64,000 nucleotides of DNA from Candidatus Pacearchaeota archaeon UBA73 (GTDB lineage Archaea; Nanobdellota; Nanobdellia; Pacearchaeales; GW2011-AR1). The translations under genes and the position numbers were made by a program. The notes under the pieces were generated by a model that saw only the letters and a list, made by a program, of their open reading frames with translations, made no database searches and was not told the origin of the DNA. The stretch covers positions 891 to 64,890 of the forward strand of contig DAIF01000014.1 in assembly GCA_002496015.1 (NCBI GenBank), given 5' to 3'. Below are positions 6,471-62,580 of the stretch, one piece after another. Position 1 is the stretch's first letter, and each line of letters opens with the position of its first letter.

Positions 6471-6601
6471 AACAAAGCGTTGTCTGGATTGATTTTACGA
6501 TTCCCACAGACCCGAACAAATCTCCCATTAGTTAAAATCAACAAACTCCGAATAACACCTGAAACGAACAAATCTATTTAAACCACAAAAATTCAAAATG
6601 T

Positions 6602-8462: not shown

Positions 8463-8514
8463 ATTTTTACCACTTAAACTAAGTAGATTTTGTTTTTAAA
8501 TCTTCCCGCTCACT

Positions 8515-8648
8515 AGCTCTGTCCGAAGTTTTGATTTTTTCTAAAATTTGGATGGTGGGGGTGGAGTGGCTGCGAGTCGGGTTTTTCCTCGTAGAGGAAA
8601 TGTTAGTGGGGATTTGAAAAATCAAAACATACTAACTACGGACAGAGC
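8515..8648. mobile_element. MITE-like repeat, family A copy 1 (about 134 bp), with terminal inverted repeats AGCTCTGTCCG.../...CGGACAGAGC
   Basis: It is about 90% identical to 14698-14883 apart from an internal indel. The ends are inverted repeats, each containing TTTTGATTTTT / AAAAATCAAAA. Confidence 0.7.
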
Positions 8649-8652
8649 CCGC

Positions 8653-10569
8653 TCACTCCATCGGCGTCCCGCCAACCCGCGACCGCCCCGACATCTGCCC
8701 GCCCAATTCCTTTGGCATCCCGCTGAATCCTCCACCATACATAGAGAAATGCTGCTCGGGCAGCATCGTGCCATATCCATAAAAATAACCGCCGGAAGTC
8801 GCATACGCCTGATTCCAATACGGAGACATCTTCATCGAATATATCGGGCTGCCGAAAGATTTCAATGACTGCGCAAAAGGCGTTTGATTCCCAAAAGCCT
8901 GCGGTCCAAACCAATTTCCAGTTTCAATAATCTGCTTTATTTCTCCCATTCGTTTATTGTATTTCGCAATCGCTTCGTATTGTTTCTTCATATTAACATT
9001 TCCCATCCCCATAGGCAGCTCTGTATGTTCCATTCCAAAGTTATCAGAAAGATGTATCTTGTTCACAAACTTCCCGACCGTCTCCGCTTCCTTAGCCAAT
9101 TGCTCGTCTTCATATCCAAATTTACGAAGCATATTTATATGCCCCACATCCCACGTGACGCCAATCAGTTTCTCGGCTTGCCTTTTCGCATCACCCTCGG
9201 ACAAGTGTTCTTCCTTCATCAATTTCTCCTGTAGCTTCTTCTGTGATTTCTCGACAATCTCTCTCAAATCTTCCGCCCTGGCCAATCCGCTCCCCGCAGG
9301 AGGATTCTCAACACTGACAATCGGAGCAGAATCCTTAAATTTTTTATAAGAATTAAACGCAACATTCGCAAAAGTTTCCGAAGACTTTTCTATTCCAAAG
9401 TTCCTCAACGGAGTTAGCGTGCTGGGAGCATCAATTGATCTCAAGACATTAACCCCTTTAACCAAAGTATCTGACAGATTAGCAAGATTGACAGGATCCT
9501 CAATATTCGGAACAAGATTTTTTATTTCGTGCTTGAATTTCTTAAGTTTATCCAGGTCATCTTCTCGCCCGCTCTTCTCGGCAGCAATATAAGCTTGATT
9601 ATATAATCTCTGAAACGCCTGATAAGCATCCCTCAGATAAATATCCCCGTGCGCGAGTTCTTGCAACTGTTTCTCTACAACGAGCTTAAACGGCGCGCCA
9701 ACCGCCTCCAGCACCTTCTGCACATCCCGCCCCTTAAGATAATTTTTATACAACTCAAGCCACTGTTCTTCATTTGTATTCTCTTTCAGCCCCCTATCAA
9801 GCTTCTCTCCTTTAAGCACGCCACTCACTATTGATTGTCCTTGGTACGCATGAAAGGCACAGTTCTGCAACTGGTTAAACCATGTATCCTTGTTTTGCTT
9901 CTCAATCGCCGCCTTTATCGTGTCCCTCTGTTGATCAATACTACCAATCTTGCCATTGCTCTCCATTAAAAGATTCGGCGTCAGAGGCAAAGATTGGAAT
10001 TGGCCGTCATTTGAAACAACCCAAAATTCTTTAATTATTTCCTTCTTCTCCTTTTTCCCGGTCTCAGGATTCACAACCTCATCCAGAATTTTTGTTTCAG
10101 GATTCGGCAAGCCATTGCTTGAATGAAATGTCACAACAAGATTTCCCTTCGGATCCATCTTGTGCGCTCGCTCAACTGCCTGCCACATCTGCCTTTCTGA
10201 TTCTTCCCTATGGGCTTCGTTCCAACCCTGTCTCGTAACTCCGGTTGGCTCAACCAGTGGCCCGTGAAAAGTCAAATCAATCCCAACTAATTTTTTCAAT
10301 CGATGTATCTCTTCCAGATGCGGATCGGGAACGGTCTCCCAAGTCGCAGCAGTAACGCCGGAAACTTCAATTGTTTTAGCCCCAGTATTCAATTTGTCAG
10401 AAATGGCTTTTAGCTGATTAGCCGTTCGAGGATCCGACGGCAACCCGAAGTTCGAAGTCGAAACCCTGTACTGCGGAAACAACCCCGTAGAAAACTCGCT
10501 GGCATAATCCGGATTCAACCCATAATCCGCTCCAGCATAAAATGTATTTCCGTAACCATCTTTTCCCAT
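8653..10569 (-). CDS. Large hypothetical protein: xylose-isomerase/AP-endonuclease-2-like TIM barrel split by a helical insertion of about 280 aa, with a G/Y/S/M-rich C-terminal tail
   Basis: The N-terminal part (TIEVSGVTAATW...LTFHGPL...VVTFHSSNG) and the distal part (VTWDVGHINM...KIHLSDNFGMEHTELPMGMGNVN) together resemble one TIM barrel. The middle is coiled-coil-like, and the final 80 aa is low-complexity GGYFYGYG...GGGFSG. Confidence 0.45.
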   Translation of the reverse strand: MGKDGYGNTFYAGADYGLNPDYASEFSTGLFPQYRVSTSNFGLPSDPRTANQLKAISDKLNTGAKTIEVSGVTAATWETVPDPHLEEIHRLKKLVGIDLTFHGPLVEPTGVTRQGWNEAHREESERQMWQAVERAHKMDPKGNLVVTFHSSNGLPNPETKILDEVVNPETGKKEKKEIIKEFWVVSNDGQFQSLPLTPNLLMESNGKIGSIDQQRDTIKAAIEKQNKDTWFNQLQNCAFHAYQGQSIVSGVLKGEKLDRGLKENTNEEQWLELYKNYLKGRDVQKVLEAVGAPFKLVVEKQLQELAHGDIYLRDAYQAFQRLYNQAYIAAEKSGREDDLDKLKKFKHEIKNLVPNIEDPVNLANLSDTLVKGVNVLRSIDAPSTLTPLRNFGIEKSSETFANVAFNSYKKFKDSAPIVSVENPPAGSGLARAEDLREIVEKSQKKLQEKLMKEEHLSEGDAKRQAEKLIGVTWDVGHINMLRKFGYEDEQLAKEAETVGKFVNKIHLSDNFGMEHTELPMGMGNVNMKKQYEAIAKYNKRMGEIKQIIETGNWFGPQAFGNQTPFAQSLKSFGSPIYSMKMSPYWNQAYATSGGYFYGYGTMLPEQHFSMYGGGFSGMPKELGGQMSGRSRVGGTPME

Positions 10570-12726: not shown

Positions 12727-12799
12727 TTCATTTCACCTCTTTAGATTATATTTTATAAAATACACATCGAAAGTTAATAAAGATTTCGCGTCAAGTGCC

Positions 12800-12915
12800 C
12801 TGTCCAAAGTCTGTTGATTTTTCCAAACTTTGGGGGGATGGAGGGATGGTCGGGGCGAGCATGTTACGCGCCAGTAATGCAAAAGAATCTAGGCGCGTGG
12901 CTGCAAGCAGAGATT
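12800..12915. repeat. Partial or degenerate copy of the family A MITE-like repeat
   Basis: CCTGTCCAAAGTCTGTTGATTTTTCCAAACTTTGGGGGGATGGAGGGATGGTCGGGGCGAGC aligns with the 5' half of copies 8515-8648 and 14698-14883. Confidence 0.5.
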
Positions 12916-13235
12916 CGACGAAAATCGAAAATTGCAAGAAGAAATAAAGCTTACTTAAACTCAAAAGAGATTTACAAATACTTTGGTGATTAGTACAATT
13001 CAGCACTAAACCCCCCCACAAATATCAAACAACAGGTTAAAAATGCCTTCGTTTCTATAATTGAATCTAAATTCCATTTCTTTTAAGTAAAACAGATAAT
13101 TAGCCTTAGATTCCATAATCCTTATGGAATCTTTCTTTAGCATAACCCCAGAACCTTTCGATCCCATAGCAATACATTTTAGAAAATGCATGAACGTTGA
13201 TTGAACACAGATTTATAATCAATTTTCAATTCATC

Positions 13236-13724
13236 CTACCCTGGCGCTGGCGTACCCCCCGGTGGTGCATATTGAGTGCAATCAATTGTCACTGGAGGAC
13301 AAACCGCTCGTTCACCAGCATCACCCGTCACAATACCTGCAACACTAACTCTTCGAGGTGTCCCTGTCCCTGTCACCGTCCCTTCAAAGGTAACTGTTCC
13401 CAATGATGGACCAGCCGACTCTTCCATACTAGCAACACTAGCACCTGCCTCATTAACAACATCTGCAACTATAGACTGTGCTTCCCCACGCATATTTCTA
13501 ACTCGTACAGTCACGCTATCTGGAGACCCTACAGTCCAGATACAAGAAACTGGCTGAACATCAACACTAAAGCACTTCGTCCTCAAGTTAGTCTCCGAAG
13601 CAGCAGTATCAAAAGTAGGTCTCAAGAAACCCCAAACAATAGCAACAGCAGCAAGCGCTAAAAGCACTATAAGCACCGTAGCGACAATGTTACTCAATCC
13701 TCTTTTGTTTTTTCTTGTTATCAT
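13236..13724 (-). CDS. Class III signal peptide (archaeal type IV pilin-like) protein, paralog 2
   Basis: The N-terminus KNKRGLSNIVATVLIVLLALAAVAIVWGF is a basic stretch plus G plus a hydrophobic helix, as in prepilin-peptidase substrates. An SD-like GAGGT lies 6 nt upstream. It starts 10 nt after paralog 1. Confidence 0.7.
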   Translation of the reverse strand: MITRKNKRGLSNIVATVLIVLLALAAVAIVWGFLRPTFDTAASETNLRTKCFSVDVQPVSCIWTVGSPDSVTVRVRNMRGEAQSIVADVVNEAGASVASMEESAGPSLGTVTFEGTVTGTGTPRRVSVAGIVTGDAGERAVCPPVTIDCTQYAPPGGTPAPG

Positions 13725-13734
13725 TTTTTACCTC

Positions 13735-14193
13735 TTAATTGCAAGCCACCGCCACAGACTCTGGGCAAGTCTCTGTATTACCACTACCATCTCTAACCCT
13801 TGCAGCTACTCTTGCTATAAAGGGCGAAGCCGTCCCTATATCATTAACCTGAGTAGCCTGAGACCCTAGAGCTGTCGTTGGAGCAATTCCTTGAGAAACA
13901 TAAGTAATCCCATTATCATCTTCCACTACAGCAGCCACAGAATCCAAGGTAACCTCTGTAGGTACACTCGTCTTTAACTGATAAGCAACATTAGCAGTTG
14001 CTCCAGAAAGACTACACTGTGTTGGCTCAACAGTAACCAAGAAACATGCATTCCTCAATGAAGTTTGGGAAGCGGCATTATCAAAAGTAGGTCTCAAGAA
14101 ACCCCAAACAATAGCAACAGCAGCAAGCGCCAAAAGCACTATAAGCACCGTAGCGACGATGTCACTCAATCCTCTTTTGTTCATCATGTCCAT
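13735..14193 (-). CDS. Class III signal peptide (archaeal type IV pilin-like) protein, paralog 1
   Basis: Its N-terminus NKRGLSDIVATVLIVLLALAAVAIVWGF is nearly identical to paralog 2 at nucleotide level over about 110 nt. The C-terminal domain is unrelated. A TTTATAA element lies about 20 nt upstream of the start. Confidence 0.7.
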   Translation of the reverse strand: MDMMNKRGLSDIVATVLIVLLALAAVAIVWGFLRPTFDNAASQTSLRNACFLVTVEPTQCSLSGATANVAYQLKTSVPTEVTLDSVAAVVEDDNGITYVSQGIAPTTALGSQATQVNDIGTASPFIARVAARVRDGSGNTETCPESVAVACN

Positions 14194-14264: not shown

Positions 14265-14345
14265 TTTTCGACGACGACTTTCACCACCCGCCCCGCCCCC
14301 AATCCCCTCCTCTTTTAATCTCCTCGCTCCTCGTCGCCAATCTCT
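14265..14345. repeat. Fragment of the repeat family G-rich core, reverse orientation
   Basis: The reverse complement GGGGATTGGGGGCGGGGCGGGTGG matches the GGGGCGGGATGATTGGGGTGG core found at 62465 and 41445. Confidence 0.35.
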
Positions 14346-14410
14346 TAACTTCCCATACCTTAAAGCTCAAGTTAGATTAACAAATCTCCAAATCTAAGAT
14401 TCATATATCT

Positions 14411-15023
14411 CTAAAGCTCCCGCTCTAAATTAATTATCTCCGTCGTACTCCAAGTCCTGATCGCTCCTTGTTTCTTGAAATGTTCATCATCTGACCAAAT
14501 ACCATCGTTGGGAACAGAAAGAGCCAGCGCAACAAAAGGGACATCTTTCTCATCTACTTCCCCAATTATCTCTTCAGCTTCTTCCATTTTATGAGCATAC
14601 TTCTCTCTGTGAACAACTTCAATACTCTCTATCAATAAACCAAACAATGTCTCAAACTCCTCCTACGTCAATCCGGCTCTTTCAATTATTATTTTTCAGC
14701 TCTGTCCAGAGTTTTGATTTTTTCTAAAATTTGGATGGTGGGGCGGGTTAGCAAGGGCGAGCACGTTACGCGAGTGCAAAAGTTGATTAATTTCGAGCGT
14801 GGCTGCGAGCAGGGTTTTTCCTCGTAGAGGAAATGTTAGTGGGGATTTGAAAAATCAAAACATACTAACTCCGAAACAGAGCTGTTTTTTCATATTTTCT
14901 AATTTCAGAGATAAGTGTTTCAGGAGCATAAAGAATAAATGGCGAGTCAATAAGAAAATTTCGGGTCAGACCTTCCTTAAACATCCCTGAAAAGACAACA
15001 TTAGTATCAATGATAAAAATCAT
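14411..15023 (-). pseudogene. PIN-domain (VapC-like) toxin gene disrupted by a MITE insertion
   Basis: The N-terminal fragment (minus strand from 15023) reads MIFIIDTNVVFSGMFKEGLTRNFLIDSPFILYAPETLISEIRKYEKT and runs into the repeat, where it meets a stop. The C-terminal fragment (14647-14411) EEFETLFGLLIE...VPFVALALSVPNDGIWSDDEHF continues the alignment with the intact paralog at 15626-16033. Confidence 0.7.
14698..14883. mobile_element. MITE-like repeat, family A copy 2 (about 186 bp), inserted inside the PIN gene
   Basis: Its termini AGCTCTGTCC...GAAACAGAGCT are inverted repeats. The internal sequence matches 8515-8648 and 12800-12915, and the interrupted host ORF is visible on both flanks. 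Confidence 0.75.
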
Positions 15024-15035
15024 TTTCTATGATTC

Positions 15036-15254
15036 TCAGCAATCCCCCCCTCTAACAAGCTTATCTAATTCTTCAACATCTTTCTTTGTCAGCTTGGATT
15101 TATTAGCTATAGCATTCGCTATTCTTATCTTTCTGAGATGCTCAAGCAATGCCTTTCTGACGACCCCGCTCCAGTTAACCTCTCCGTGCCTCTTCATCTC
15201 TTCCTTCAAATCTTTCGGCACACTCAAAGTGATATTTTCCATATGTGTATACAC
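15036..15254 (-). CDS. Ribbon-helix-helix/CopG-like antitoxin (VapB-like) upstream of the disrupted PIN gene
   Basis: ENITLSVPKDLKEEMKRH is a typical RHH beta-strand and helix. It ends 12 nt before the PIN start. Confidence 0.55.
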   Translation of the reverse strand: MYTHMENITLSVPKDLKEEMKRHGEVNWSGVVRKALLEHLRKIRIANAIANKSKLTKKDVEELDKLVRGGDC

Positions 15255-15434
15255 ATAATCACACCATTTAATTTTTTCCTTCTCCCGTTAAATATCATAA
15301 ACGACAAACATAATTATCTCAAACCGCAGTTAATTCTATGAATAAAAAGTCCATCAAAACTAACAAAGAACTGCAAGAAAAGGCAGATATTCTCAAATAA
15401 GAAACCTTAAATATCTCAAACGATAACCAATCCT

Positions 15435-15629
15435 ATGAGTGAAATCAAAATAGAAATCCCTGAAGAACTGAAAAGAAAAATAGAAACCAAAATAGGCCTG
15501 ACTCTCTTAGTTAAAAGACTAGTCAAGCACCTCGAAGAAGAACAAGAAATGATAGACTGGTCCGTAAAACTCCAGAGAACTGCAAGAAAAGGCAGATACA
15601 GAAAGCTTAAAGAAAAAGGATTGATATGA
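15435..15629 (+). CDS. Antitoxin-like small protein (VapB-like)
   Basis: A 64-aa ORF (SEIKIEIPEELKRKIE) that overlaps the downstream PIN gene by 4 nt (ATGA). Confidence 0.5.
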   Translation: MSEIKIEIPEELKRKIETKIGLTLLVKRLVKHLEEEQEMIDWSVKLQRTARKGRYRKLKEKGLI

Positions 15630-16033
15630 AAATAGTGGCAGATTCAAACATTTTATTTACTTTCTTTTGGAAAGACTCATTTACAAAGGGCATTCTCGTC
15701 GACCAAAATTTTGAATTTTTCGCTCCAGAAATAGCAATTCACGAAATAAAAAATAACAAACAAGAAATAACCAAAAAAACAAAATCTTCCGAAGAAGAAT
15801 TCAATTCGTTACTTGGAGAGTTAGCTATCTTTGTAGAGTTTATTCCCCTCGACGAATACATTGATAAGGTTAGTGAAGCAGACGTGATATCTGACAAAGA
15901 TGATATCGATTTCATCGCTCTCGCCCTCAAATTAAACTGTGAAATATGGTCAAACGATCCTCATCTAAAAGAACAAAACAAGGTAAAGGTTTATACCACT
16001 TCAGAATTTATCCAACACATCGAACAATCTTAA
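15626..16033 (+). CDS. PIN-domain ribonuclease (VapC-like toxin)
   Basis: It has the MKIVADSNIL acidic start, a conserved D in DIDFIALAL, and an ATGA overlap with the upstream small gene. Confidence 0.7.
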   Translation: MKIVADSNILFTFFWKDSFTKGILVDQNFEFFAPEIAIHEIKNNKQEITKKTKSSEEEFNSLLGELAIFVEFIPLDEYIDKVSEADVISDKDDIDFIALALKLNCEIWSNDPHLKEQNKVKVYTTSEFIQHIEQS

Positions 16034-25606: not shown

Positions 25607-25665
25607 GTTTAAAAATTTAACCATTATCGGGTTTTGTTGAAAAAGTTCGAACTGCACAGAAAAAA
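25607..25665. repeat. Minimal palindromic family B element (about 50 bp)
   Basis: TTGTTGAAAAAGTTCGAACTGCACAG...AAAAATTTCAACAAG. The 5' arm matches the family B 5' consensus (GCTCTGTTGAAAAAGTAGGAACTGCAGG) and the 3' arm is its inverted repeat. Confidence 0.45.
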
Positions 25666-33226: not shown

Positions 33227-33340
33227 TAATCCAAAGCTCTGTTGAAAAAGTCTGAAACTCGCGTGGCAACAAGCGAGCGCAGCGAGCCGCTATTACCAAA
33301 ACGCCGGCCGCCAAGTCGGGCGTCCAATTTATCTAGACGC
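33227..33340. repeat. Family B MITE-like repeat copy
   Basis: It starts AAGCTCTGTTGAAAAAGTCTGAAACTCGCG, and this 5' portion (about 30 nt) is shared with copies at 41407 and 61721. Confidence 0.55.
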
Positions 33341-37069: not shown

Positions 37070-39364
37070 TTATCCTGCGTAGAGTGGACCTGTCTCGAGA
37101 CCTGCTTTTGCGCGTTTGAGATAGTAATCTTCAATCTTCTTATAACGCTGAGCTGTCTCAGTCGAGACCGACGGCTTGACTTTTCTGAACGCCTCGTCGA
37201 TATCTTCCTTGGATACTTCTTTGGCTTCTTTGTCTTTTCGGAGTGCATTAAGCGCAGCCTCTCTAATAAGAGCTTCTATATCGGCTCCCACGTAACCTTC
37301 AGTTTGTTTTACCATGTCAAAAAGTTTCACATCCTTAGCCAATGGTGTGTTTTTTGTGTGGATTTTGAAGATTTCCATCCTCGATTCTTCGTCAGGGACA
37401 TCTGCCAAGATTATCCTGTCGAACCGGCCTGGACGCAAGAGCGCCGGGTCGAGCATGTCAGGGCGGTTGGTCGCGCCGATTATCGTGACGTCTTTTAGAC
37501 CTTCCAATCCATCGATTTCTGCAAGCAATTGGTTTAGAACTCTTTCAGTAACTTTGCTACCCTGCTCAATTCCGCGCTTTCCTGCGAGCGCATCTATTTC
37601 GTCGAAGAAAATCACACAAGGAGCAACTTGTCTTGCCCGCTCGAAAACTTTTCTTACACCTTCTTCTGATTTTCCGACCCACATGCTTAACAACGAAGGA
37701 CCTTTGACCTGAATGAAGTTTGCTTCTGATTCCTTAGCGACGGCTTTTGCGAGCAGAGTCTTTCCTGTTCCGGGAGGACCGTAAAGCAAAATGCCTCTTG
37801 GAGCGCGGATTCCGAGTCTTGCAAATGCTTCTGGTCTTTGTATTGGCCATTCCACAGCTTCCTTAAGTTCCTGTTTTGTTCTTTCCATTCCGCCGATGTC
37901 GTTCCAGCCGATGTTTGGCGCCTCGACGAAGACTTCTCTCATCGCACTTGGGCGGACTACCTTGAGCGCTTCTTCAAAATCTTCCAGCCGGATTATTGCC
38001 TTGTCCAGAACTTCCGGAGGAATTGGTTCCTCTTCTTCAAGCTTTAAAGAAGGAAGCATTTTTCTTAGGACGTTCATAGCAGCTTCTTTTGTCAGAGCTG
38101 AGAGGTCCGCGCCGACGAAGCCATGCGTGCGCGCTGCGAGATCTTCAAGATTTACATTTCTAGCGAGAGGCATATTTCTTGTATGAATTTTTAAGATGTC
38201 TAATCTGCCTTTTTTATCTGGAACAGAAATTTCAATCTCCCGATCAAACCTTCCCGGTCTGCGGAGTGCGGGATCAACCGAATTCACGCGATTCGTCGCG
38301 CCGATAACAATCACTTTTCCGCGGGATTTCAGACCGTCCATCATCGTCAATAATTGTGAGACAACTCTTCGTTCCACTTCGCCCTGAACATCTTCACGTT
38401 TCGGGGCTATCGCATCTATTTCGTCGAAGAAAATTATTGAAGGAGCATTTTTTTCAGCGTCTTCGAAAATGTCCCTGATCTTTTTTTCAGATTCGCCGTA
38501 GAATTTTGACATTACTTCCGGACCGTTAAGCAGGATGAAGTTTGCTTCTGATTCATTGGCTACGGCTTTTGCGAGCAGAGTCTTTCCTGTTCCGGGAGGA
38601 CCGTGGAGAAGAACACCTTTTGGAGGATCTATTCCCAGCTTCTGGAAAATCTCTGGGTGTTTGAGGGGAAGCTCGACCATTTCTCTTATTTTCTTAATCT
38701 CATCTTCCATGCCTCCGACGTCTTCGTAAGCGATGTCTGGGATAGCGTCGTCAGACACTTCAACAGATTTTGGATTGAGAATTATTTCAGTATCTTCATT
38801 GATGAAACAATGCTGTGCAGGGGTGGTGTTCACTACGACGAATCTTATCTGCTGGAAACTGCCTGGAAAACCATGGTTGAACAGGTCTTGGAGGTCTCCA
38901 AAGAAGTCCGGTAATCCTTCTCCGCCCATGAGGTCTTTTCGCCTCTGGACTCCGCCCAAAGAAATTATGTCCCCTTTAGTTATTGGTCTGCCGAGTAATC
39001 CGTTTCTAAGCATTTCGGGATCTGCCTGGACAGTAATGCCCTGCTGAGCTGGAGCAATAGCTACCTTTGTGGCGGGTTTGACTCCTGCTTTTTTTACCTC
39101 GACTTGTTCACCCACACTGACGCGCGCGTTTTTTCTTATAAGGCCGTCAATTCTGATTATGTTCTCGCCTACATCTGCAGGATAAGCGCGATCGACAATC
39201 GCGAGTGTTTCTCTTTGTCCCTTGATTGAGATTATGTCTCCTCTCGCCAGGCCCATTTCCCTCATTAGTTGAGGATCGATTCTTGCAACGCCCTTGTAAA
39301 CGTCGTCTTGTAAAGATTCAACTACCTTCAATCTTATTTGCGGGATGTTATTTAGTTTTACCAT
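37070..39364 (-). CDS. cdc48: CDC48/VCP-like AAA+ ATPase
   Basis: N-terminal CDC48 domain plus two AAA modules, each with [15 protein letters not shown] Walker A, DEID Walker B and second region of homology (SRH) motifs. Confidence 0.95.
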
Positions 39365-39758: not shown

Positions 39759-39975
39759 TGTTTTGTTTGGTTGGGTTGTTGAAATCTTTCTTGCGCAGTT
39801 TCAGATTCCCACTTTGGATTTCTCTTACAAAGAAAAACTCTCTTAATCCCCTCTCCCTAGATTTAAGTAAAACAAACTCCGGACAGAGCCTTCTAATACA
39901 AAAGTTTAAATCTTTTGAGACATGAGTTATCACGAAGAGGGCATACGAAACGTTTAAAAAAAGTCGGTTCGTAAG

Positions 39976-41406: not shown

Positions 41407-41565
41407 AGCTCTGTTGAAAAAGTAGGAACTGCAGGTTTATTAAAATTTGGGGCGAAGGGATTAGGAGGGACAGGGAGGGTTTTCGACTTGAGCAATACGA
41501 AAGTCGAATCCAAAGTGGGAATCTGAAACCTGCGCAAGAGAGATTTTCAACAGAACCCGCTGAAT
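41407..41565. mobile_element. Family B MITE-like repeat, complete copy with TIRs (GCTCTGTTGAAAA ... TTTTCAACAGAAC)
   Basis: The 5' end AAGCTCTGTTGAAAAAGTAGGAACTGCAGG is followed by the internal core AAAATTTGGGGCGAAGGGATTAGGAGGGACAGGGAGGGTTTTCGAC, which matches 62462-62510. The 3' end is an inverted copy. Confidence 0.65.
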
Positions 41566-50019: not shown

Positions 50020-50315
50020 TAAATCACTTAGCTGAATATGTTTATAAAATTTTCCAGGAAGGGCTCTGTTTAAAATATCTCTGAATATCCGCCTAATAAG
50101 ATCGTTTTACTAATTTACTCTCGATAAAAACAACAACACTCAATTTTGTAAAGCTAAAAAGTTTTTTGAAGCTCCGCCTCAAGACTAGCTCTGTTCAAAG
50201 TTTGTCTATTTTACCTAATAATCCCTCTCGCGTATCCCTCCCAAATTAAATAAAGCCGACAAACTCCGGATAGAACCCAAGGTCGGAAAGATTTATAAAT
50301 AGATGTTTACCAGAA

Positions 50316-55774: not shown

Positions 55775-55924
55775 GTGAAAATTAAGCATAAGAAGTATAT
55801 AAATCTTCGGATGCTTTCGTTTTGTCCGAAGCTGATTTTATGATTCCACAGACTTCGAATGCAACAAGAACCTTATCTGTTCCTCTAGTTATAATGTTCT
55901 CAGGGCTGTGCAAATCCCTCCCCA

Positions 55925-55985
55925 AATTTAGGTAAAACCAACAGACTCCGGACAAAGCCCTCGCCCCAAACATTTTATAAACTTT
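55925..55985. repeat. Repeat family fragment, reverse orientation
   Basis: The reverse complement AAAATGTTTGGGGCGAGGGCTTTGTCCGGAGTCTGTTGGTTTTACCTAAATTTGGGG matches 62445-62490 nearly base for base. Confidence 0.6.
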
Positions 55986-61720: not shown

Positions 61721-61800
61721 GAAAAAATCGGAAATACGCAGCCCAATCTGGATGTGGTCGGGGCGCTGAAAAGTGGGGCGCAAAAAGATTTTAAGAGCCA
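61721..61800. repeat. Family B MITE-like repeat copy (5' portion)
   Basis: AAGCTCTGTTGAAAAAATCGGAAATACGCAG... shares the 5' module with 33227 and 41407. Confidence 0.5.
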
Positions 61801-62465
61801 ATAAAAAGAGCATGATAATCATAAACTTCAAAAATTACGTTGCAGGGAAAAAATCCCTCGCTCTCGCAAAACTTATTGAAAAGCATTTCTCAAGGGCAAT
61901 CATCGCAGTTCCCGCGGTAGACATAAAAGAACTCCATGAAAAAACAAAACTCCGCATATTTGCCCAACACTTAGATGCAATTGACGGTCGCGCGACCGGC
62001 TTCCTCCTGCCTGAAACCGCAAGAGCTGTCGGAGCTTCCGGCACACTTCTAAACCATTCAGAACACCCACTGCCCTTCAGGATTCTAAAAACCGCGGTCT
62101 CAAGAACGCACAAAGCCGGACTAAAGATTGTAATCTGCGCACCTTCAATAAAAGAAGCAAAAAAACTCGCATCCCTCAAACCGGAAGCCATCGCATTTGA
62201 AGACCCAAAACTCATCGGCTCCGGCAAATCAATAACTGAATACCGCGCTGACGAAGTAAAAAAATTCGCCCAACTTTTCCGGCACTCAAAAATCGTCCCA
62301 CTATGCGGCGCAGGCATTAATAAAATTGAAGACGTCAAAGCTGCACACGACTTGGGCTGTCACGGCGTCTTGATCGCAAGCGCAATCGCCGCAGCTCCGC
62401 CAAAAAAAACAAAAGATTTTTTGAGAGAACTCGGGCTTTGTCCGGAGTCTGTTGGTTTTACCTAA
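61773..62465 (+). CDS. tpiA: Triosephosphate isomerase (archaeal short type)
   Basis: IIINFKNY start, catalytic His in LLNHSEH, catalytic Glu in AFEDPKLIGSG, and GAGI near the C-terminus. Confidence 0.9.
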   Translation: MGRKKILRANKKSMIIINFKNYVAGKKSLALAKLIEKHFSRAIIAVPAVDIKELHEKTKLRIFAQHLDAIDGRATGFLLPETARAVGASGTLLNHSEHPLPFRILKTAVSRTHKAGLKIVICAPSIKEAKKLASLKPEAIAFEDPKLIGSGKSITEYRADEVKKFAQLFRHSKIVPLCGAGINKIEDVKAAHDLGCHGVLIASAIAAAPPKKTKDFLRELGLCPESVGFT

Positions 62466-62580
62466 ATTTGGGGCGGGATGATTGGGGTGGACAGGGTGGG
62501 ATTCGACGACAGTCGAAGTCTGTGGGAATCGTAAAATCAACCGAAAAATCAACTCCGGACAAAGCCAGAACTCGCTAAAA
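62440..62580. repeat. Composite copy of the repeat family (GGCTTTGTCCGGAGTCTGTTGG... core plus GTCTGTGGGAATCGTAAAATCAA module)
   Basis: It contains modules that recur at 55925-55985 (reverse complement), 41445-41510, 6480-6510 (reverse complement) and 39875-39900. Confidence 0.6.

Follow-up and report, generated by a model that had tools for sequence, protein, structure and literature searches.

Probable MITE insertion into a PIN_2 toxin gene of what appears to be a decaying toxin-antitoxin gene pair

Analysis of a 64-kb stretch of DNA, referred to here as the window, indicates that a MITE has very probably inserted into the toxin gene of a two-gene type II toxin-antitoxin (TA) operon, which shows further decay. 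The operon would have carried an RHH_12 antitoxin gene upstream and the gene of a PIN_2/VapC-group nuclease downstream, and its decay would have continued after the insertion or have begun before it. Judging by homologues and gene content, the DNA probably comes from a DPANN archaeal chromosome. DPANN genomes are small, and few of their mobile elements have been studied; the locus would provide a clean, datable example of MITE mobility in a DPANN archaeon-like genome, with defined ends and an 8-bp duplication. Additionally, a TA module is apparently seen here while being dismantled, and the recording of its split fragments as separate proteins calls for caution in annotation. The interrupted gene and the element are arranged as follows:

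14884-15023, minus strand: 5′ part of the toxin gene (codons 1-46 plus 2 nt) with D6 and E35; its final 8 nt represent the target-site duplication on the upstream side
14698-14883, plus strand: MITE of 186 bp with the terminal inverted repeats AGCTCTGTCCAGAG... and ...CCGAAACAGAGCT
14411-14695, minus strand: 3′ part of the toxin gene (KIIIERAGLT, a stop codon, EEFETLF...EREL, a stop codon) with the remaining acidic residues

The 5′ ORF of the toxin gene (minus strand, 15023-14865) starts with the ATG at 15023, ends with a stop codon at 14867-14865 and encodes MIFIIDTNVVFSGMFKEGLTRNFLIDSPFILYAPETLISEIRKYEKTALFRS, beginning with MIFIIDTNVV and ending with ...EIRKYEKTALFRS. Consistent with a preliminary description of this DNA, the ORF crosses into the repeat at 14883 and terminates within it, the stop following after six element codons. 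Past the element, the minus strand (14698-14411) reads, in another frame, KIIIERAGLT, a stop codon and EEFETLFGLLIE...WSTTEIINLEREL up to the final stop codon. The homology does continue beyond the repeat, as had been described, but it does not resume at EEFE: KIIIERAGLT (14695-14666) directly follows the element, and TAG comes only after it. A 78-aa piece of the 3′ part is recorded by NCBI as a separate protein (P0027).

When the fragments 15023-14884 and 14695-14411 are joined, a 139-aa protein is obtained. It scores 100 bits against Pfam PF10130 (PIN_2; E 1.7e-28), for which the gathering score is 22.4 bits, and covers positions 1-128 of the 133 in the profile. The 5′ ORF had been proposed to be the N-terminal part of a PIN domain related to the paralogue encoded at 15626-16033. 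The joined protein aligns to this paralogue with 35% identity over 133 residues (E 3e-27) in a collinear manner and with no gap at the junction; the lack of collinearity that had been named as speaking against a split gene was not observed. Alignment to 14 full-length homologues (53-60% identity) is gapless at the junction as well. Here the homologues read EIRKYE-x-LIIxKSGLTKEEFE, and the window reads EIRKYEK before the element and IIIERAGLT, a stop codon and EEFE behind it. A database search gave 81 relatives, the best of which are full-length proteins of 130-144 aa with 55-62% identity; the named relatives belong to Woesearchaeota, Aenigmatarchaeota and Nanoarchaeota. The insertion is absent from the full-length homologues. 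The homologue search gave no uninterrupted allele of the same species; the closest protein without the interruption is 62% identical. Since the joined protein covers PF10130 from end to end and aligns seamlessly to its homologues, the two fragments are, as judged by these alignments, collinear halves of one PIN_2 (VapC-group) toxin gene. PIN_2 has been grouped with the VapC-type toxins of type II TA systems (PMC5499597).

In the 14-homologue alignment, the columns of D6, E35 and D97 are invariant or almost so, and the joined protein has the WSDD motif. These positions are split across both fragments: the N-terminal acidic residues D6 and E35 lie on one side of the insertion, and the C-terminal residues D97 and D115 as well as the WSDD motif on the other. 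Because the acidic residues are separated and translation is cut six codons into the element, the toxin is most likely dead, in agreement with the earlier view that the repeat has inactivated it.

The repeat at 14698-14883 begins with AGCTCTGTCCAGAGTTTTGATTTTTT and ends with AAAAATCAAAAC...CTCCGAAACAGAGCT, and its imperfect inverted ends extend over approximately 27-35 bp, with the core AGCTCTGT...ACAGAGCT. For the family as a whole, the inverted ends can be written as (A/G)GCTYTGTCC. With 186 bp the element stays under the limit of about 600 bp for MITEs and is without coding capacity, the longest ORF wholly inside it being 37 aa, and it lies antisense to the toxin gene when it is oriented by its internal hairpin module. 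At least seven further copies or fragments occur in the window, in addition to solo ends:

8515-8649, plus strand: sibling MITE with 94-96% identity, in which a deletion has removed about 51 nt of the hairpin module
12795-13006: copy with about 70% identity, degenerate
62434-62566, plus strand: family member without the hairpin module, with perfect 15-bp inverted ends
41407-41557: family member without the hairpin module
39774-39890, minus strand: family member without the hairpin module, which looks like a chimera of two end types
55819-55959, minus strand: family member without the hairpin module
about 6480-6556: fragment without the hairpin module

Two of these siblings are flanked by perfect 8-bp duplications, namely CGCTCACT for the copy at 8515 (8507-8514 and 8650-8657) and AGAACTCG for the copy at 62434 (62426-62433 and 62567-62574), with a chance probability of about 1.5e-5 for each. 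At the copy at 41407, the duplication matches at 7 of 9 positions. The 13-mer end motif GCTCTGTTGAAAA was found exactly five times in the 64 kb, compared to an expectation of about 0.002. The inverted ends, the lack of coding capacity, the many copies and the perfect 8-bp duplications on two siblings together identify the repeat, on these sequence features, as a family of MITEs that duplicate 8 bp of their target. It had been suggested that the repeat family is, or was, mobile, and both the perfect duplications at 8515 and 62434 and the homologues without the insertion bear this out. An IS200/IS605-derived or REP-type hairpin repeat was considered and ruled out, as this family has inverted ends and 8-bp duplications.

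Like other prokaryotic MITEs, the elements are small (133-186 bp) and non-coding, carry terminal inverted repeats and have a fixed 8-bp target duplication, and they are present in many dispersed, mostly intergenic copies with occasional disruption of a gene. They differ in being modular, with some copies carrying an extra conserved hairpin that is also found in shells with other ends. In a census of archaeal MITEs, DPANN genomes were reported to be densely populated, one from Woesearchaea having about 105 MITEs per Mb (PMC11602168). As a non-autonomous DNA transposon, the MITE would depend on a transposase acting in trans, for which the window has no gene. Pfam searches of 10 larger ORFs near solo ends gave no transposase domain; these ORFs were housekeeping genes (CysRS, TIM, Dus, RtcB) or had no match. 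The ends GGCTCT... in combination with an 8-bp duplication resemble those of the ISL3 family or the IS1595/ISH4 group, and the transposase may be of such a type. No match was obtained when two element patterns, for the ends and for the interior, were searched in exact or degenerate form against one genome per GTDB species, when the end-based pattern was searched against JGI metagenomes, when both patterns were searched against viral contigs, or when the element was compared by BLASTN to plasmids and phages.

Several observations concern the surroundings of family members and solo ends. The 8515 copy is inserted at the stop codon of a 638-aa gene (8653-10569), and the duplicated 8-mer contains the TGA of that gene. 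Solo copies of GCTCTGTTGAAAA, exact or nearly so, are situated at gene boundaries at 33236, 47112 (minus strand), 50831 (minus strand) and 61713, and also at 25631 and 50063. The TIM gene at 61773, for instance, is directly preceded by one such GCTCTGTTGAAAA end. The sequence at 25631 is a mini-element, about 45 bp long and made up of hardly more than two ends, and the solo ends at 50063 and 50831 are inverted relative to each other at a distance of about 780 bp. The toxin gene is closely followed by a stretch rich in G (14281-14340, GGGGATTGGGGGCGGGGCGGGTGG on the minus strand), which is similar to the G-rich arm of the MITE family and may be a remnant.

The insertion point of the element in the toxin gene is bordered by the following two stretches:

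14884-14891, minus strand: upstream copy of the target-site duplication, GAAAAAAC, with the length of 8 bp taken from the sibling copies
14691-14697, minus strand: GAAAAAT, the second copy of the target-site duplication, on the downstream side and lacking one A of the presumed target

The preliminary description had left the exact insertion point and any duplication to be identified. The point could be located, but the duplication at the PIN copy is imperfect, reading TATTTTTC / GTTTTTTC on the plus strand with 6 of 8 positions matching. To agree with the homologues, the protein would have to read ...K Y E K I I I E... at this place, corresponding to AAA TAT GAA AAA ATA ATA ATT GAA. This sequence contains GAAAAAAT, which is the probable ancestral target 8-mer, and the empty site would read ...AAATATGAAAAAATAATAATTG... 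The two toxin halves lie in different frames, and the frame stays broken after removal of the element alone or of the element together with a clean 8-bp duplication. It is restored by removing 193 nt (186 + 7), as 193 mod 3 equals 1, which is the offset between the halves. The frame offset is thus accounted for by what seems to be the simplest history, an 8-bp duplication followed by the loss of 1 nt from the downstream copy; an atypical 7-bp duplication would explain it as well. In the simplest history, the element would have inserted at codon 46/47 of the toxin gene and duplicated GAAAAAAT. A T to C change in the upstream duplication copy would then have converted an Ile codon to Thr, and one A would have been lost from the downstream copy.

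The junctions were also compared to a second assembly. A contig from the Logan assembly of run SRR5037222 (L002, contig_9) is 100% identical to window positions 20242-14841 (about 5.4 kb), which shows that this public run contains reads of the genome. The identical part comprises the antitoxin gene, the N-terminal region of the toxin and, from this side, 43 nt of the element (14883-14841) and ends there, as is expected at a dispersed repeat. The left junction, between the toxin N-terminus and the element, is thereby reproduced in an independent assembly, and the right junction, between the element and the C-terminal half of the toxin, is present in one assembly only. Look-ups with P0027 and with two versions of the downstream pilin-like protein gave no second contig on record over the right junction. 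A misjoin caused by the dispersed repeat, with the element not really located within the gene, would fit the multi-copy nature of the element, the break of the Logan assembly inside it and the right-hand junction known from a single assembly. However, a misjoin would link unrelated flanks, whereas the flanks found here are the two halves of one 139-aa domain in direct succession, and not a single residue is lost or repeated between them. The 8-bp duplication at the junctions is degraded but recognisable, and the left junction was confirmed by an independent assembler. Such an artefact is very improbable.

Beyond the insertion, the 3′ half of the toxin gene carries a nonsense codon:

14663-14665, minus strand: in-frame TAG at a position where the homologues have Lys, probably AAG changed to TAG

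In the proposed history, a Lys codon in the toxin 3′ half would have been converted to this TAG, which lies 10 codons after the element. TAG terminates 8 of the 38 long ORFs in the window and is thus an ordinary stop codon here; for the same reason, a reading of TAG as a sense codon was ruled out. This bears on the idea that the element is intron-like, of the archaeal bulge-helix-bulge type, and is removed from the mRNA, with the toxin still being made. The element ends do pair into a helix in the mRNA-sense strand, and an RtcB ligase is encoded in the window. On the other hand, the end helix is continuous except for one small bulge and does not contain two 3-nt bulges spaced by 4 bp, and the in-frame TAG, a stop codon in use, remains 10 codons downstream after any excision. 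Additionally, sibling copies with target duplications are located in intergenic DNA, and the antitoxin is damaged too. An intron is scarcely conceivable under these circumstances.

The antitoxin gene lies directly upstream of the toxin gene and is adjoined by a divergently oriented second module:

15036-15254, minus strand: antitoxin ORF of the RHH_12 family, likely start ATG at 15242 (68 aa), C-terminus truncated by a frameshift
15044-15050, minus strand: run of 7 G, read as one more than the ancestral 6 G, which causes the antitoxin frameshift
15020-15043, minus strand: out-of-frame relic of the antitoxin C-terminus (IAENHRK, stop codon), whose TGA overlaps the toxin ATG as ATGA
15435-16033, plus strand: neighbouring module, intact, with a 64-aa upstream gene (15435-15629) and the PIN_2 paralogue (15626-16033)

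The 68-aa antitoxin is identical to a protein on record (P0082) with a precomputed assignment to Pfam PF26688 (RHH_12), which is also found on all 41 relatives; a local Pfam search of the antitoxin gave weak RHH_1 and CcdA matches only. It is 65% identical to the RHH_12 gene product of a homologous operon (L001), where the RHH_12 and PIN_2 genes overlap by 4 nt, and homologues of antitoxin and toxin appear to lie on shared contigs in several genomes, judging by agreeing lengths of the longest contigs. In the neighbouring module, the two genes are joined by an ATGA overlap (15626-15629), as in L001. The locus resembles VapBC-type modules with a PIN_2 toxin (PF10130, COG5378; PMC5499597) in the small upstream DNA-binding antitoxin gene, the 4-nt overlap, the PIN gene of about 139 aa and the conserved acidic active-site residues, and an intact paralogous module adjoins it. 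It differs from them in its lesions, namely the apparent MITE insertion and the nonsense codon in the toxin gene and the apparent frameshift in the antitoxin gene.

Homologues of the antitoxin are mostly 73-76 aa in length and end with xGIAKxHGL. As assembled, the antitoxin ends with ...RGGDC; with 6 G it reads ...RGGIAENHRK, which fits the homologue consensus. The frameshift removes a conserved 7-residue tail and breaks the ATGA overlap with the toxin start, so that a gain of one G in this run would have removed the tail and uncoupled the two ORFs. The C-terminal part of VapB-type antitoxins binds the toxin. Loss of antitoxin function is probable from the sequence of this gene. The upstream antitoxin (15036-15254) had previously been described as intact and as an orphan that can protect against related toxins. 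Neither view is supported, since the frameshift removes the tail and the antitoxin shows no meaningful similarity to the antitoxin of the adjacent module in a BLASTP comparison (best E 0.019 over 13 residues).

Nevertheless, the toxin might be dead and the RHH protein be kept as a regulator or guard, with the G7 run being a sequencing error or the truncation being harmless. In line with this, 66 of the 73 antitoxin residues are intact, including the whole predicted ribbon-helix-helix part, and the ORF is still on record at NCBI as a protein. Both indels, the G7 run and the A run at 14691-14697, are located in homopolymers, where sequencing errors are common; they could be such errors, and the antitoxin would then be intact after all. 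However, the same G7 run is present in the independent Logan assembly, and the lost tail GIAKxHGL is conserved across homologues, so it matters. A guard role towards the adjacent module meets the lack of similarity between the two antitoxins, and the neutral-type decay of the toxin half (TAG, 1-nt deletion) points to an old, unselected locus. We consider a retained antitoxin quite unlikely. Beyond the insertion, there are at least four small lesions in both genes (the TAG codon, the 1-nt loss, the T to C change and the G-run gain), and the whole module thus seems to be decaying, as a pseudogene pair rather than as a dead toxin with a preserved antitoxin. By its lesions, the module looks like an ordinary decaying TA gene pair. 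Two orders of events may be proposed, and both are open to the data: loss of the toxin could have made the antitoxin dispensable, or damage to the antitoxin could have selected for a knock-out of the toxin.

Disruption of TA genes by mobile elements is commonplace. MITEs are well known in archaea, and the hairpin module alone might lead to new ground. It was found at the following loci:

14745-14818, plus strand: hairpin module of the PIN copy, GGGCGAGCACGTTACGCGAG, an AT-rich loop, then CGAGCGTGGCTGCGAG; G-U pairs form on this strand only
12843-12916: hairpin module
L003-L015, for example L005:2737-2811, L007:10443-10517 and L013:3977-4050: hairpin module loci outside the window

The PIN copy and the 12795 copy carry this extra module of about 55 nt, which consists of GGGCGAGCAYGTTACGCGAG, about 20 AT-rich nt and CGAGCGTGGCTGCGAG; the 8515 copy retains only its 3′ part. 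Its sequence can be written as GGGCGAGCAYGUUACGCGAG, an AT-rich loop and CGAGCGUGGCUGCGAG, with possible tandem G-A pairs flanking a 10-bp stem. A covariance model was built from 9 copies and gave 27 matches at E <= 1 and 20 at E <= 1e-5, the match at 14745-14818 scoring 81 bits. The hairpin comprises 13 pairs, and pairing is observed in 98% of cells. Both partners are changed in six pairs, a number that was reached by none of 500 shuffles and that collapses when the partners are slid, but shared descent of the copies can inflate such covariation statistics beyond shuffle controls without selection. In the 12795 copy, G-C/C-G stands at the flanking G-A/A-G positions, and the adjacent G-C pair is inverted to C-G. 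Due to two U-G pairs, the hairpin folds on the plus strand of the window only.

Searches with the hairpin pattern gave 13 stretches on JGI metagenome contigs with DPANN-like gene content. Only the interior hairpin pattern, not the end pattern, found these metagenome loci. The hairpin of about 55 nt is nearly invariant over 20 matches in the window and nine metagenome loci. At the metagenome loci, the module sits in another shell, which is bounded by CTTTGTTGAAAA / TTTCAACAAAG as outer ends and also contains an inverted pair further inside and a second hairpin that covaries; no target duplications could be recognised around these 'subfamily A' copies. Hairpin-bearing copies share one orientation per contig, whatever the strand of the flanking genes. 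In the window the three are all on the plus strand, and on the metagenome contigs there are four copies on L003/L007 (contig Ga0209210_1000111), all on the minus strand, four on L013, also all on the minus strand, and three each on L009 and L011. Family members in the window without the hairpin are in mixed orientation, with 5 on the plus and 3 on the minus strand. A link of the orientation to the direction of replication is possible. A likeness of the hairpin and a GTGGGG motif to an origin recognition box was rejected, as the sequence of the hairpin covaries and is not conserved, and an attC-like site was rejected because there is no R-box and the insertion lies inside a gene.

The bacterial Correia/NEMIS, ERIC, BOX and REPIN elements are short dispersed repeats with internal conserved hairpins that can act at the level of RNA or ssDNA, and BOX elements are modular. 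The family described here is unrelated to them in sequence, and it has a target duplication, which REP/REPIN elements lack. The hairpin of about 55 nt might itself be a functional, strand-specific structured RNA or ssDNA module that is kept by selection in DPANN-like MITE shells, a reading that we put forward only tentatively. If it is true, this would be an undescribed class of dispersed structured element in reduced DPANN genomes, with MITEs as vehicles.

One might go further and regard the element mainly as a dispersed structured RNA or ssDNA module whose presence in the PIN gene is a by-product of its spread. The near-invariance of the hairpin, its 98% pairing and the six compensatory pairs compared to none in 500 shuffles would agree with this, as would its occurrence in shells that differ in their inverted ends and contain a second hairpin with covariation, its folding on one strand and the common orientation of all copies on a contig. 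However, family members without the module transpose equally, as seen from the perfect duplication at 62434, and the 8515 copy has lost most of the module. The module also has no Rfam family and no consistent position relative to genes: a search of the whole window at Rfam gathering thresholds gave only four tRNAs located elsewhere, and at E <= 10 the matches on 14300-15500 were at chance level. A main role as a structured module seems rather unlikely, and a MITE insertion into the toxin gene of the TA operon is the reading that we prefer.

Further repeats were noted in coding sequences of the window. Two tandem paralogous genes at 13236-13724 and 13735-14193 encode proteins with archaeal pilin-like N-termini (MNKRGLS.IVATVLIVLLALAAV...) and share a 159-nt stretch with 85% identity. 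A 119-nt direct repeat (37698-37816 and 38520-38638, 82% identity) lies inside a 764-aa ORF (37070-39364) and suggests an internal protein repeat.
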